A stretch of DNA of 64,000 bases from Escherichia coli (GTDB lineage: Bacteria > Pseudomonadota > Gammaproteobacteria > Enterobacterales > Enterobacteriaceae): NCBI RefSeq assembly GCF_044647545.1, contig NZ_CP172818.1. One strand, written 5' to 3'. The translations under genes and the position numbers were made by a program. Positions 21,572-50,544 of the stretch are shown here, piece after piece (position 1 is the first letter of the stretch; each line of letters opens with the position of its first letter). Below the pieces are notes generated by a model that saw only the letters and a list, made by a program, of their open reading frames with translations, was not told the origin of the DNA and searched no databases.

Positions 21572-21652
21572 TGGGTTTGAAAATGGGAGCTGCGAGTTCT
21601 ACCGCAGGGGCGGGGAATTCTAAGTGATATCCATCATCGCATCCAGTGCGCC

Positions 21653-22418
21653 CGGTTTATCCCCGCTGGCGCGGGGAATCGCCGGAAAATATTCATGATG
21701 GGGGTGGTTATGGCGGTTTATCCCCGCTGGCGCGGGGAATCTCGGGGCCGCCGTGTTCACATTTGCCTAATTTCCCGGTTTATCCCCGCTGGCGCGGGGA
21801 ACTCTATCATAAACGAGGTGAATTTATGGAAACTGTACGGTTTATCCCCGCTGGCGCGGGGAACTCGTTAGTTTTCGAAAAAATTGTTTTCTTACGCTGG
21901 TTTATCCCCGCTGGCGCGGGGAACTCAATTATTGTCGTGGACAAATGCCGGTGTTATTGCGGTTTATCCCCGCTGGCGCGGGGAACTCATTCGAGACAAT
22001 CTCTCAAAATTAATGAAATCGGTTTATCCCCGCTGGCGCGGGGAACTCCAGGTATCAAGAAATAATCGAAGCCTTCATGACGGTTTATCCCCGCTGGCGC
22101 GGGGAACTCAATTGATTGCTGGGTGATATTGGAAAATGTTGCGGTTTATCCCCGCTGGCGCGGGGAACTCCTACCGTACAGATCCTGACCGGATATTATT
22201 TTTTTGCGGTTTATCCCCGCTGGCGCGGGGAACTCCGACGTTCGACGAAATGCGCGATGGCGGTCGGCGGTTTATCCCCGCTGGCGCGGGGAACTCTTCT
22301 GCGTCCCCGATGTCTGGCCCGACTGGTCCGGTTTATCCCCGCTGGCGCGGGGAACTCTATATGACCGGAACACTTCCGCCTGACGTTTGCGGTTTATCCC
22401 CGCTGGCGCGGGGAACTC
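21653..22418 (-). CRISPR. CRISPR array, type I-E repeat (plus strand CGGTTTATCCCCGCTGGCGCGGGGAACTC), 13 repeats and 12 spacers; leader at the high-coordinate end
   Basis: Repeat starts at about 21653, 21714, 21776, 21838, 21898, 21960, 22020, 22081, 22142, 22207, 22268, 22329, 22390; the two leader-distal repeats end GAATCG/GAATCT. Confidence 0.97.
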
Positions 22419-22523
22419 TCTAAAAGTATACATTTGTTCTTAAAGCATTTTTTCCCATAAAAACAACCCACCAACCTTAATGTAACATTTCCTTATTATT
22501 AAAGATCAGCTAATTCTTTGTTT
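22419..22523 (-). promoter_or_regulatory. AT-rich CRISPR leader between the last repeat and cas2
   Basis: AT-rich non-coding segment adjoining the consensus repeat; leader role is from established knowledge of type I-E arrays. Confidence 0.7.
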
Positions 22524-45848: not shown

Positions 45849-47327
45849 ATGTCGAAAAAATACATCATAGGGATTGATGGCGGAAGTCAGAGCACAAAAG
45901 TGGTGATGTACGATCTGGAAGGTAATGTGGTTTGCGAAGGCAAAGGCTTATTGCAGCCGATGCACACGCCAGATGCCGATACCGCAGAACATCCTGACGA
46001 CGATTTATGGGCATCATTATGTTTTGCCGGTCACGATTTGATGAGTCAGTTTGCCGGAAATAAAGAAGATATTGTCGGTATTGGTCTGGGATCCATCCGT
46101 TGCTGCCGTGCGTTATTGAAAGCCGATGGCACGCCAGCTGCGCCGTTGATTAGCTGGCAGGATGCACGCGTTACACGCCCTTACGAACATACGAATCCTG
46201 ACGTGGCATATGTCACCTCTTTTTCAGGTTATCTGACGCATCGCTTAACCGGCGAGTTTAAAGACAATATCGCCAACTATTTTGGTCAGTGGCCGGTGGA
46301 TTATAAGACCTGGGCATGGAGTGAAGATGCCGCAGTCATGGAGAAGTTTAATATCCCCCGTCATATGCTGTTTGATGTGCAAATGCCGGGCACTGTTCTT
46401 GGGCATATCACTCCTCAAGCCGCGCTGGCGACACATTTCCCAGCTGGGCTGCCGGTTGTTTGTACCACCAGTGATAAACCGGTAGAAGCTCTGGGAGCCG
46501 GATTACTGGATGATGAAACGGCGGTGATTTCTCTTGGCACCTACATCGCGCTGATGATGAACGGTAAAGCACTGCCGAAAGATCCGGTGGCGTACTGGCC
46601 GATTATGTCTTCTATTCCGCAAACATTGCTGTATGAAGGTTACGGTATTCGCAAAGGCATGTGGACGGTGAGCTGGCTGCGCGACATGTTAGGCGAGTCG
46701 TTAATTCAGGATGCCAAAGCACAGGATCTTTCACCGGAAGATTTGCTCAACAAAAAAGCGTCTTGTGTGCCGCCTGGCTGTAATGGTCTGATGACGGTGC
46801 TGGACTGGCTGACCAATCCGTGGGAACCATACAAACGCGGGATTATGATCGGCTTTGATTCCAGCATGGATTACGCATGGATATATCGTTCGATACTGGA
46901 AAGCGTGGCGCTGACGCTGAAGAACAATTACGACAATATGTGTAATGAAATGAATCACTTTGCAAAGCATGTGATCATTACTGGCGGCGGTTCGAACAGC
47001 GATCTGTTTATGCAGATTTTTGCCGACGTGTTCAACCTTCCGGCACGCCGTAACGCCATTAATGGTTGTGCAAGTCTGGGGGCAGCGATCAATACGGCGG
47101 TAGGTCTGGGGCTATACCCGGATTACGCAACGGCTGTCGACAAAATGGTTCGCGTGAAAGATATCTTTATGCCTGTTGAGAGCAACGCCAAACGCTACGA
47201 CGCGATGAATAAAGGCATTTTCAAAGACCTAACCAAGCACACTGATGTGATCCTGAAAAAATCGTATGAAGTGATGCATGGTGAGCTGGGGAATGAAGAT
47301 TCGATCCAGAGCTGGTCGAATGCGTAA
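45849..47327 (+). CDS. ygcE: FGGY-family carbohydrate kinase
   Basis: 492-aa ORF starting MSKKYIIGIDGGSQSTKVV. Confidence 0.85.
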   Translation: MSKKYIIGIDGGSQSTKVVMYDLEGNVVCEGKGLLQPMHTPDADTAEHPDDDLWASLCFAGHDLMSQFAGNKEDIVGIGLGSIRCCRALLKADGTPAAPLISWQDARVTRPYEHTNPDVAYVTSFSGYLTHRLTGEFKDNIANYFGQWPVDYKTWAWSEDAAVMEKFNIPRHMLFDVQMPGTVLGHITPQAALATHFPAGLPVVCTTSDKPVEALGAGLLDDETAVISLGTYIALMMNGKALPKDPVAYWPIMSSIPQTLLYEGYGIRKGMWTVSWLRDMLGESLIQDAKAQDLSPEDLLNKKASCVPPGCNGLMTVLDWLTNPWEPYKRGIMIGFDSSMDYAWIYRSILESVALTLKNNYDNMCNEMNHFAKHVIITGGGSNSDLFMQIFADVFNLPARRNAINGCASLGAAINTAVGLGLYPDYATAVDKMVRVKDIFMPVESNAKRYDAMNKGIFKDLTKHTDVILKKSYEVMHGELGNEDSIQSWSNA

Positions 47328-47335
47328 GTGAGGAA

Positions 47336-47359
47336 GACCGGGCGGGAAACTGCCCGGCC
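47336..47359 (+). terminator. Short GC hairpin (ccgggc / gcccgg) after ygcE; weak terminator candidate
   Basis: 6-bp stem, no clear T-run. Confidence 0.3.
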
Positions 47360-47374
47360 TGAACATACCTGAAT

Positions 47375-47511
47375 GGTTATCCCCGCTGACGCGGGGAACA
47401 TAAGTTCGACAACTTAAAAAATGATAACAAGTCCGGTTTATCCCCGCTGATGCAGGGAACATAATAAAAACTTTAACTAGTTCGTTTATCCCTGTTGTTA
47501 CAAGGAATATT
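47375..47511 (-). CRISPR. Degenerate CRISPR remnant: three decayed type I-E-like repeats
   Basis: ggttatccccgctgacgcggggaacat; cggtttatccccgctgatgcagggaacat; cgtttatccctgttgttacaaggaatat. Confidence 0.75.
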
Positions 47512-47964
47512 AACTACACTCGATGTCTTTAGAATAAAAGACAATACGAATCGCACTTTATCAATTTTCACTTAAAGTATGAACTGGATATCTTTATTCA
47601 TAAGAACTATTCATCAACAGCGTATAGAGGCGGTTATGTAAAACCACTCATTAGCCTCAAAACAAAGACAAACTTCCAGATTTATTACTTAATCAATGAA
47701 TAACAAGCTTAAAAAATACACTGTTATTCTAAAGAAAAAATTAACAGGCATTAATTAATATTAAAAAAAATAATATATTAAAATTTCTTAACGGTTTAAG
47801 GATTATACAAATAACACTTTGATTAAATTTGATTTTTTGTATCGATAATTGTGAACTTATCTGGCATGGAGAACTATTTTGAACATGAGGTGTTATGTGG
47901 ATATGTTGCTTATTACAAGTACAGCTAATATAAAAACTTGAGAAAGAGATAACGGGTTATATGG

Positions 47965-48367
47965 TGGTTCATCCCCGCTGGCGCGGGGAACACGTCTTTT
48001 TGACCGGCCGGTAAATCGTCTGCCTGCGGTTTATCCCCGCTGGCGCGGGGAACACAAACCATTCTCGCAATCAAGGACTATTCCTAGACGGTTTATCCCC
48101 GCTGGCGCGGGGAACACGGTCGCAGGGAATACAAAGCCGTGCATCCTGCTCGGTTTATCCCCGCTGGCGCGGGGAACACTGGCTCTGCAACAGCAGCACT
48201 ATGACCCCGTCGGTTTATCCCCGCTGGCGCGGGGAACACGAAAAGCTTATGATCGTTAATGCCGCAAACACCGGTTTATCCCCGCTGGCGCGGGGAACAC
48301 ATTACACCTATGTGCGAGCGCCCGGTTTTTGCCGCTAGCGGTTTATCCCCGCTGGCGCGGGGAACAC
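47965..48367 (-). CRISPR. Orphan CRISPR array, 7 repeats and 6 spacers, repeat variant ending GAACAC (plus strand CGGTTTATCCCCGCTGGCGCGGGGAACAC)
   Basis: Repeat starts at about 47965, 48027, 48089, 48151, 48211, 48272, 48339; the first repeat is a variant (ggttcatcc). Confidence 0.95.
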
Positions 48368-48706
48368 TCTAAACATAACCTATTATTAATTAATGATTTT
48401 TTAAGCCAGTCACAATCTACCAACTTTATAGTATCACACAAACAACACATCCATTATGTTAAAGAGCACTTAATCCATTGATTAAAAAGGTAAATATTTA
48501 AAATAACTCTATACAAACTAAAATCTACCAAACTTTACCGCAATAATTTTCACTCCAGCGAAAAATTAACGCCACAGAATTTGTAGAGAATGATAATGAT
48601 TAGTTCAGGATGGGCAAGATGGATGAGTTTTCAGAGGCGACAAACAATATAAATGAGTAGAAGTCTTTACAGGTTCCACCCATTTATAACGCTTATAAAT
48701 GTTTAA
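48368..48706 (-). promoter_or_regulatory. AT-rich leader of the second CRISPR array
   Basis: AT-rich segment adjoining the most conserved repeat; begins tctaaa like the array 1 leader (tctaaaag). Confidence 0.6.
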
Positions 48707-49378
48707 TCAGGCAATATTTAGATATTTATGTGTTTGCATCGACAAACGCCAATTACGCGCAATGCAGGTTTCAATGCACAAACGTGTGGCATCATCCTTT
48801 TGGCTAATCGGCTGCAGTGCAATGACTCGCGGTTTATCATCGGTCAGCGTTGCCAGTAGTTCATCCAGTGCTTCAATATCACGTACGCGCCCCACTGGAT
48901 GCTTGATTTCGTTGGCTCGCTCCAGTGCCTGTGACAACACTTCATAGCCGCCGCGCATGTTCAACTTTGGTGATACGGTAACCCAGGTATTCGGTGTGCA
49001 GCGTACCTCATGAGTACCACTGGTTTCGATCTGGCAGCTAAAACCGTTCTTTTCGAGCAGATCAGTCAGTGGCAGCAAATCATGAATGCAAGGCTCACCA
49101 CCCGTAATCACCACATGCCGTGCGGTGTATCCCTGGCGACCAATGACAGCCAGCAAATCTTCACTGCTCGCAGCCCCCCACTTATCACTCTCTTTGGTCT
49201 TCGCCAGAATGCTGAAAAGGGAGACTTCCCGATCCTCAAGCTTTTCCCAGGTGTGTTTGGTGTCGCACCAGGCACAGCCAACCGGGCATCCCTGTAAACG
49301 AATAAAAATGGCGGGGACGCCGGTAAAGTAACCCTCACCTTGCAGGGTCTGGAACATCTCGTTAATCGGGTACTGCAT
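48707..49378 (-). CDS. queE: 7-carboxy-7-deazaguanine synthase (radical SAM)
   Basis: 223-aa ORF; Cys motif CPVGCAWC. Confidence 0.92.
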   Translation of the reverse strand: MQYPINEMFQTLQGEGYFTGVPAIFIRLQGCPVGCAWCDTKHTWEKLEDREVSLFSILAKTKESDKWGAASSEDLLAVIGRQGYTARHVVITGGEPCIHDLLPLTDLLEKNGFSCQIETSGTHEVRCTPNTWVTVSPKLNMRGGYEVLSQALERANEIKHPVGRVRDIEALDELLATLTDDKPRVIALQPISQKDDATRLCIETCIARNWRLSMQTHKYLNIA

Positions 49379-49671
49379 AGCATTCTCTGTGAAGTGGATA
49401 ATTGTTAATTATTGCAGATCCTGCCACAACAATCATGTCTTATTAACATTCTGTTACAGGCAGGTTTAAAGAAAAATGAGAAACAGATCGTTAATAATAA
49501 AAGGAAGTAACGTATTATGTCAGAAATAAATAAAGTAAAGGGATTTAATCATGTCAAAAACATTCACCGAAATTATACTTATTTTTTCTGTGTTCGTTTT
49601 TAATTATAACGAATCTCAAATTACCGGTGCCGCCGTCAATTTATTTATCCAGCTTTAATGGGACATTTATA

Positions 49672-50544
49672 ATGCGCTATTTCATACTAATATTCACATT
49701 CGTGTGTTCCTTTGTTGCAGCCCAACCAACTATTGTCCCACAATTACAGCAACAAGTTACGGATCTTACGAGTAGCTTAAACTCACAAGAAAAGAAAGAA
49801 CTGACGCGGAAGTTAGAATCTATTTTCAATAATACCCAAGTACAAATTGCTGTATTAATTATTCCCACAACCAAAGACGAGACAATTGAACAATATGCTA
49901 CAAGGGTTTTTAACAATTGGCGTTTAGGAGATGCCAAACGCAATGATGGGATACTGATCATTGTTGCCTGGTCGGATCGCACTGTCCGCATCCAGGTAGG
50001 TTATGGGCTGGAAGAAAAGGTAACCGATGCTCTGGCTGGAGATATCATCCGTAGCAACATGATACCCGCATTTAAACAACAAAAATTAGCTAAGGGATTA
50101 GAGTTAGCTATAATCGCTTTGAATAACCAACTCACTTCACAACACCAATATTCGGCTAATCCTTCAGAAAGTGAATCAGCGTCTTCCAGCGATTATTACT
50201 ACTTTGCTATTTTTTGGGTATTTGCAGTGATGTTCTTCCCTTTCTGGTTTTTTCATCAAGGCAGTAATTTTTGTCGCGCATGTAAAAGCAGTGTCTGTAT
50301 TTCAGCAATCTATCTTTTAGATTTATTCCTGTTCTCCGATAAAACTTTTTCCATTGCTGTATTTTTCTTCTTTTTTACTTTCACCACCATTATGGTCTTT
50401 ACCTGTTTATGTGTACTTCAGAAAAAAGCATCTGGTAGAAGTTATCATTCAGACAACAGCGGTTCCGGTGGCGGCTCAAGTGGCGGCGGATTTAGCGGCG
50501 GGGGCGGTTCTTCTGGCGGTGGCGGCGCGTCCGGTCGCTGGTAA
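49672..50544 (+). CDS. ygcG: TPM-domain membrane protein with Gly/Ser-rich C-terminal tail
   Basis: Start taken at [10 protein letters not shown] (290 aa); signal/transmembrane segment; C-terminal [20 protein letters not shown]. Confidence 0.8.

Follow-up and report, generated by a model that had tools for sequence, protein, structure and literature searches.

An AT-rich stretch between the CRISPR2.2 remnant and the CRISPR2.3 array of Escherichia coli is not a working CRISPR leader

In Escherichia coli, a decayed CRISPR remnant and an intact CRISPR array are separated by a few hundred base pairs of very AT-rich DNA, and the question is what this DNA is: the relic of the leader of an eroded array, as a sequence-only reading of the locus proposed, the eroded interior of an array, an overlooked gene, an insertion of foreign DNA, or simple filler. 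The window that we analysed is a stretch of DNA of 64,000 nucleotides (contig NZ_CP172818.1) whose sequence matches Escherichia coli chromosomes. In K-12, the annotated gene order around the AT-rich stretch is yqcE, ygcE, CRISPR, queE, yqcG, ygcG, eno, and the order within CRISPR-II is here ygcE, CRISPR2.2, 0.5 kb, CRISPR2.3, leader 2.3, queE, where the names CRISPR2.1, CRISPR2.2 and CRISPR2.3 follow the Alicante nomenclature of the Almendros/Mojica group (PMC3903273, PMC4489801, PMC3737337). The features of the locus are the following.

21653-22418: array 1, which is CRISPR2.1 and adjoins cas2
45849-47327: ygcE, which ends at 47327
47338..47361, + strand: GC-rich hairpin just 3' of the ygcE stop codon, probable terminator or stabiliser of ygcE
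47373..47510: CRISPR2.2, a fossil mini-array whose crRNA-sense strand is the - strand
47373-47401: first repeat of CRISPR2.2 (R1), 5 mismatches
47402-47433: spacer 1 of CRISPR2.2 (S1)
47434-47462: second repeat of CRISPR2.2 (R2), 4 mismatches
47463-47481: spacer 2 of CRISPR2.2 (S2), truncated, 19 nt
47482-47510: third repeat of CRISPR2.2 (R3), 11 mismatches
47512..47964: AT-rich non-coding intervening stretch between CRISPR2.2 and CRISPR2.3
47965..48367, - strand: CRISPR2.3, which is array 2, 7 repeats, with a degenerate trailer repeat at 47965
48368..48706, - strand: leader 2.3 and the remaining interval to the queE stop codon, 339 nt
from 48707, - strand: queE

This arrangement has been described before. 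CRISPR2.2 and CRISPR2.3 are reported to be "separated by 0.5 kb" in E. coli (PMC3903273), CRISPR2.2 consists of three repeats with two invariable spacers (PMC4489801), and leaders are recognised beside CRISPR2.1 and CRISPR2.3 only (PMC3903273, PMC3737337). The gap of K-12 CRISPR-II has the same flanking genes, the same three-repeat remnant and the same two spacers, and its sequence is 97.1% identical to that of the stretch; this strain differs from it by a 1-nt deletion and one substitution in R3 and by its own alleles in a hypervariable centre (described below), and otherwise nothing of substance differs. We consider it probable that positions 47512-47964 are the known non-coding, AT-rich intervening sequence of about 0.45 kb that lies between CRISPR2.2 and CRISPR2.3 in the CRISPR-II locus of E. 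coli. The stretch is in any case a real, ordinary and previously described feature of the CRISPR locus that has been studied best, and the initial observation is confirmed.

The composition of the stretch is extreme: its GC content is 27.4%, against a mean of 50.2% over the window, and only 0.16% of all 453-nt windows are equally GC-poor, so that the stretch is about the minimum of the window. Its orientation relative to the arrays is also clear. All 20 intact repeats of the two arrays and the three remnants in CRISPR2.2 share the same reading direction on the + strand, and both real leaders start directly to the right of the last repeat, at 22419 for array 1 and at 48368 for array 2, where they open with TCTAAA. 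Since the repeats are co-oriented and the leaders lie to the right of the arrays, the stretch flanks the remnant on its leader side and array 2 on its trailer side. The open reading frames within it are only 20-26 aa long, and none is conserved in a comparison with five other E. coli lineages and a sister lineage, L011 (CP089930.1; species-level, with a ygcE that is 93% identical): the small frames break or run into stop codons in other E. coli lineages or in L011, and in those that stay open the differences are mostly non-synonymous. The AT-richness, the position, the orientation and the absence of credible genes were thus all correctly read from the sequence.

These observations bear on the idea that the stretch hides an unannotated gene, coding for either an sRNA or a small protein. 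The minus strand folds somewhat better than shuffled sequences (z = -2.5) and part of the stretch is a conserved block, both of which speak for such a gene. On the contrary, an Rfam search of the stretch returned no match to any RNA family, no structure is supported by covariation (the alignment-based fold has a positive covariation term, and a compensatory change is seen in only 4 of the 111 predicted pairs), and there is no conserved ORF. Of 5426 complete E. coli genomes, 4164 contain the stretch (93-100% identity), and it is almost always unannotated in them, apart from a few records that extend their CRISPR feature across the equivalent of 47512-47964; PGAP has annotated nothing there in thousands of genomes. 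A hidden gene is therefore very improbable.

The main proposal of the sequence-only reading was that the stretch is a relic leader, which can be compared with real ones. As a positive control, leader 2.1, leader 2.3 (from E. coli and E. albertii) and the leader of Klebsiella spallanzanii were aligned pairwise, using global alignments that are anchored at the repeat junction and scored against dinucleotide shuffles; they align with z = 4.6-11. Leader 2.3 is colinear with leader 2.1 and with the Klebsiella I-E leader, and the real I-E leaders that were compared share TCTAAA at positions 1-6, a T-run at 30-35 and C[CT]ACCAAC at 49/50-57. The last motif covers the integrase anchoring site (IAS), which has been defined experimentally at -50 to -53 of the I-E leader (PMC5224486). 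The AT stretch opens with TAACTAC, and it has none of these three landmarks. A scan for IHF sites, which is noisy even on real leaders, detects no match to WATCAANNNNTTR with at most 2 mismatches in the first 60 nt, the sole one being at 68-80.

No significant similarity to the leaders of array 1 and array 2 was found by blastn, anchored global alignment, local alignment, diagonal scans or nhmmer, and the scores of the stretch against leader 2.1 and against the Klebsiella leader are those expected by chance (z about 0). The junction-anchored alignment with leader 2.3 does give z = 4 and outscores 182 natural AT-rich windows, the best diagonals being +3 and +4. We read this signal as compositional, rather than as homology, because other registers of the stretch beat the anchored one against leader 2.3 (offset 81 scores 8, versus 4) and because local alignment is at chance (P = 0.30 and 0.56). 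An A>T strand skew is common to the stretch and leader 2.3.

The spacers of the remnant point in the same direction. CRISPR2.2 has the same two spacers in every E. coli locus examined in which the remnant is intact, and spacer 1 is also present in L011. The only differences in spacer content are losses, either by repeat-repeat deletion (strain 114, L011) or by insertion of an IS (L007). These invariable spacers imply that none has been acquired by CRISPR2.2 within E. coli, and since the leader landmarks are absent too, the stretch is not a working CRISPR leader today. The type I-E leaders of Enterobacteriaceae and the stretch are alike in that both are AT-rich, non-coding, adjacent to the leader-side end of a repeat and skewed towards A over T, but the stretch has neither the landmarks, nor a significant alignment, nor the spacer turnover. 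As it had been formulated, the proposal of a relic leader fails on the alignment with the leaders of both arrays, on the landmarks and on the invariable spacers, and the stretch should not be annotated as a leader.

Whether some part of it nevertheless descends from a leader depends on how the sequence evolves, which we examined by comparing this strain with L011. The four-fold degenerate sites of ygcE are 74.2% identical between the two, which we use as the neutral level. The identity over the whole AT stretch, 76.7%, is neutral, whereas leader 2.3 is strongly constrained, with 94% identity in E. albertii and L011 (P = 9e-22 above neutral). We note in passing that ygcE (45849-47327) is unusually divergent from its K-12 counterpart for a comparison within E. 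coli (95.9% identity overall, 84% at four-fold sites), and that the ygcE locus appears to carry deep alleles or to have exchanged with other lineages.

The average over the stretch conceals two regions that behave differently.

47512..47611: R3-proximal conserved block, 0 of 100 columns variable among 5 deep E. coli lineages
47630..47900: hypervariable centre, as defined by column variation and identity with L011

In the conserved block, 89 of 100 columns are identical in L011, against 74% for the neutral level (P = 2e-4 before correcting for the post-hoc choice of bins), and R3 together with the first 100 nt is at least 99% identical in 3447 of 4151 genomes. In the hypervariable centre, on the contrary, 28 of the 100 columns at 47712-47811 vary among 5 E. 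coli sequences, the identity with L011 is 52-75%, and a central probe of 130 nt (47690-47819) has a megablast match in 748 genomes only. The conserved zone is not restricted to the stretch: it extends from the ygcE hairpin through R1, S1, (R2, S2) and R3 to about 100 nt into the stretch, and the fossil array with these 100 nt (47373-47611) is 89-96% identical in L011, compared with the neutral 74%, and has no variable columns in 5 deep lineages. The substitution pattern thus indicates that most of the stretch drifts at the neutral rate and that its first 100 nt or so do not, so that "inert AT-rich filler" is not a fitting description of the whole. It is this sharp boundary, between a conserved fossil array with about 100 nt and a remainder that drifts neutrally, that seems to us the thread worth following.

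The conserved zone has structural features as well. R1, R2 and R3 all fold into the canonical hairpin with a 7-bp stem and a 4-nt loop, and do so only on the sense (minus) strand: the sense hairpins of R2 and R3 have predicted energies of -12.1 and -7.9 kcal/mol (z = -3.3 and -3.8), while on the opposite strand the stem is interrupted (z = -1.3). The stem of R3 is kept by two double changes from C-G to U-A and by one G-U pair; given the five transitions in the stem, the chance of retaining it by accident was estimated at about 8%. Two further elements lie in the conserved block.

47524..47543: 7-bp inverted repeat or hairpin, (T)GTCTTT-AGAATA-AAAGAC(A), from the predicted fold
47555..47583, - strand: candidate promoter-like element, TGn-extended, read from the sequence and directed at R3

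The hairpin at 47524..47543 is retained in L011 through one compensatory change and two wobble changes. The candidate promoter-like element consists of a -35 hexamer TTCATA (47583-47578), a 17-nt spacer and a -10 hexamer TAAAGT (47560-47555), which together match 8 of 12 hexamer positions, and it is about 37 nt from R3; neither hexamer shows a change in any of six E. coli sequences or in L011. It falls under the threshold of the promoter scan, and there are 16 such sites in the region, as the composition predicts. Together, the hairpins and the promoter candidate give a hint, from sequence comparison, that there may be, or may have been, selection on a sense-strand transcript of the fossil array; this hint is based on one sister lineage and on windows that were chosen post hoc. 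As a separate observation, the repeats of CRISPR2.2 all end with AAYAT, while those of arrays 1 and 2 end with AACTC or AACAC.

We can now return to the possible descent from a leader, in the following restricted form: at least the 100-150 nt that are proximal to R3 would derive from the leader of a once-independent CRISPR2.2, and would have lost the integration signals but perhaps kept a promoter. The stretch lies on the correct side in the correct orientation and abuts the leader-side end of R3, the conservation of R3 and of the block next to it is far above the neutral level, a conserved TGn-extended element is directed at R3, and the three repeats share their AAYAT end and keep their sense-strand hairpin. 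The anchored alignment with leader 2.3, with its diagonals at +3/+4, could be counted on the same side. Moreover, TTTATCAAT, at 47-55 nt from R3, is identical to TCTACCAAC (49-57 of leader 2.3) except for three C-to-T changes, so that it may be a decayed look-alike of the -50 motif at roughly the right distance; this decay is of the same kind as that seen in R3 and would destroy the anchoring site.

The observations that count against such a descent are of several kinds. The better scores of non-anchored registers, the local alignments at chance and the z of about 0 with leader 2.1 and the Klebsiella leader all weaken the one positive alignment, and neither the TCTAAA junction nor the T-run at 30-35 of real leaders is present; the noisy IHF scan likewise shows no site in the first 60 nt. 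Leader 2.3 has changed by only about 6% across Escherichia, so that one would expect to recognise a tandem copy that had arisen in the genus; this makes a recent tandem copy of leader 2.3 an unlikely source of the stretch. R3, which is the leader-proximal repeat, is the most decayed of the three and not the least. Last, we looked in metagenomes for a live homologue, with the canonical repeat end joined to the conserved core as the query, and obtained 0 matches. We regard descent of the proximal part from a leader as a tentative explanation, more doubtful than not.

It may also be that the conserved zone still does something. The fossil CRISPR2.2 and the first 100 nt or so would then be a unit that still functions and gives one or two invariable crRNA-like RNAs, conserved across the species, with a role other than adaptive defence. 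Transcription in the crRNA sense would start at a non-canonical promoter within the conserved block or else reach the unit from CRISPR2.3 as read-through. Such a unit would explain why R1, S1, R3 and the proximal block are conserved above neutral across a species-level divergence, why R2 and R3 have Cas6e-type hairpins on the sense strand only, with compensatory and G-U changes, and why the rest of the stretch drifts neutrally. A search for a protospacer of the invariant spacer 1 in phages and plasmids gave chance-level matches only. We hold this functional reading to be improbable; if the conservation does reflect function, E. coli would have a domesticated, non-adaptive crRNA unit.

A different possibility is that the stretch is not beside an array but is itself the interior of one, the 453 nt being about 7-8 old repeat-spacer units that have mutated beyond recognition. 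R3 and the trailer repeat lie 483 nt apart, which is about 8 x 61; of the repeat-like traces, the best two, CTGGCATGGAGAAC (47861-47874, P about 0.014) and CGGTTTA (47792), are 0 and 5 nt off a 61-nt lattice; and R3 shows that repeats do decay from GC to AT at this locus. In four lineages the autocorrelation at 61 nt nevertheless does not rise above background, divergent E. coli do not keep the CTGGCATGGAGAAC trace but have CATATATGGAGAGC instead, and the nhmmer match to array 1 has E = 5.3. On the basis of repeat matching against shuffles and of the 61-nt autocorrelation, we reject a decayed-array interior, which is close to refuted and has, in our opinion, hardly any chance of being correct.

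Regarding the origin of the stretch, we scanned one genome per species, using YgcE as an anchor. ygcE and queE are adjacent and convergent, 40-100 bp apart, in Citrobacter, Enterobacter, Klebsiella, Cedecea and others, which indicates that the whole CRISPR-II block is an insert specific to Escherichia. The left edge of this insert is marked by the hairpin at 47338..47361, which is kept in all the Escherichia loci compared; in a CRISPR-less locus (L040, 8480-8510), the stem of the hairpin at the end of ygcE is retained with different base pairs. The terminator scan did not call this hairpin, and no T-run follows its stem.

Within Escherichia, the stretch is not present everywhere. In E. albertii and E. 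whittamii, R1 is accompanied by leader 2.3 and by few or no additional repeats, and the AT stretch is lacking. E. coli HS and the B2 phylogroup have a single array like that of E. albertii, again without the stretch, and 231 genomes share the B2 spacer. L011 carries the stretch, with an R3 that is unchanged at all 27 aligned bases, but R2 and spacer 2 are missing. In the loci compared, spacer 1 is never seen without the AT stretch, so that S1-R2-S2-R3-AT behaves as one presence/absence block.

One way to account for this distribution is that a single ancestral array (the CRISPR2.2-3 arrangement) was split by AT-rich foreign DNA that inserted in its old end. In E. albertii, E. whittamii, E. coli HS and B2, the single array does start, beside ygcE, from this same degenerate R1, and the stretch is missing, the presence/absence block would be what was gained, and the stretch is AT-rich and H-NS-bound (in K-12, see below), like horizontally acquired DNA. 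But no similarity of the stretch to phages, plasmids or other parts of the window was found that could point to a donor, and no target-site duplication or terminal repeats are seen. Three matches to "plasmids" turned out to be mislabelled chromosomes, and a 15-nt inverted pair that we considered as a trace of insertion is within chance and not conserved. The absence of the stretch is explained equally well by deletion between repeats, a process that is visible in strain 114, which lacks S1+R2, and in L011, which lacks R2+S2. In addition, the R1 of single-array strains ends with AACTC, which is the product expected of a crossover between R1 and the trailer repeat. Insertion of foreign DNA is thus conceivable but, as we see it, rather unlikely, and the distribution fits both an insertion into one ancestral array and a pair of arrays that underwent repeated deletion.

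The locus is rearranged in other ways in two of the genomes. In L003 (NZ_CP068591.1, strain EF7-18-58, positions 1-1315), cysJ-queD runs straight into a 3' fragment of ygcE, a junction whose sequence implies that the whole segment from iap-CRISPR2.1-cas to ygcE has been deleted; this strain retains CRISPR2.2, the AT stretch and a long CRISPR2.3. In L007 (NZ_LR536431.1, positions 340-2485), an IS3 lies between the end of ygcE and R1, and an IS1 takes the place of R3 and of nearly all the AT stretch, of which the last 34 nt are left.

The sequence-only reading had also suggested that the stretch could carry promoter or nucleoid-protein binding activity, and here the literature provides data for K-12. 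The K-12 orthologue of the stretch is the promoter island 2901670-2902016 (coordinates of U00096.2; also named 2901670_347), one of 78 such islands (PMC3661553). It is listed as ygcE(+)/queE(-), intergenic and convergent (PMC3661553, Table 1 and Table S1), it lies within a genomic island according to GIST (flag set in Table 1), and its H-NS code is "A", which stands for H-NS binding "according to all studies" (Grainger, Kahramanoglou, Oshima) (PMC3661553). In K-12, promoter islands are defined with PlatProm as regions of at least 300 bp in which predicted transcription start points are extremely dense; as a class, they bind RNA polymerase and form open complexes, but yield mainly abortive oligonucleotides of 9-14 nt and very little full-length RNA.

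The coordinates of the island were converted from U00096.2 to U00096.3 with an offset of about +1977, which we take to be the amount by which the two genome versions differ in length (1,977 bp). When this offset is applied, two neighbouring islands land in the intergenic regions after which they are named (MG1655 annotation), and the island itself becomes 2,903,647-2,903,993 of U00096.3, inside the K-12 AT stretch. Mapped from K-12 to the window, it covers most of the stretch; a further site was found by the promoter scan.

47599..47945: equivalent of the K-12 promoter island 2901670-2902016
47938..47965, + strand: promoter-like site TTGAGA-16-TATGGT, which points into CRISPR2.3, antisense

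The suggested binding activity is thus backed by published data for an orthologue that is 97% identical, an H-NS-bound island (PMC3661553); the H-NS and polymerase data were obtained with K-12 (97.1% identical), not with this strain, and are taken from a secondary analysis.

Our own scans put the promoter-like sites in perspective. With a lax threshold for the hexamers, the stretch is the densest part of the 64-kb window in pairs that resemble -35 and -10 elements (16-17, versus a mean of 2.7), but dinucleotide shuffles of the stretch give 14.9 +/- 4.4 such sites, which equals the observed number. Sites that match the strict consensus are fewer than expected (1, versus 3.7 in shuffles), the count of H-NS motifs is that expected from shuffles, and promoter-like sites in the scanned region around 47938..47965 are no commoner than in shuffles. 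The density of promoter-like sites in the stretch is a by-product of its base composition.

The stretch resembles the promoter islands of K-12, among which the casA/cas3 and queE/ygcG intergenic islands may be named for comparison (PMC3661553), in its AT-richness, its weak promoter-like sites, the binding of H-NS and its location in laterally acquired DNA. It differs in that it lies between convergent genes inside a CRISPR locus and so does not front any gene. Elsewhere in the window, the queE/yqcG-ygcG intergenic region (about 49250-49900) has the most promoter-like sites that match the strict consensus, up to 8 per 453 nt, and it corresponds to a second published promoter island, 2903475_338.

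We propose the following picture of how the stretch may behave. The AT-rich DNA would have come with the laterally acquired CRISPR block, or into it. Its extreme AT content would create dozens of weak, overlapping promoter-like sites, on which RNA polymerase may be trapped, and H-NS would coat the stretch, as published for K-12. Such weak overlapping sites and the bound H-NS would together put the stretch in a silent, heterochromatin-like state. It could then keep apart, as a silent buffer, the 3' ends of two convergent transcripts, that of ygcE and the leftward pre-crRNA of CRISPR2.3, which would give it an insulating role.

Last, we note some details of the intact arrays. Array 1 has an additional, decayed 14th repeat at 21592-21620, exactly 61 nt ahead of the repeat that is listed first, in the trailer on the iap side, where CCGCAGGGGCGGGGAATTC matches repeat positions 11-29. 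Two spacers have lengths that are atypical for type I-E, namely 38 nt in the leader-proximal spacer of array 2 (48301-48338) and 36 nt in the array 1 spacer at 22171-22206; the remaining spacers measure 31-33 nt.
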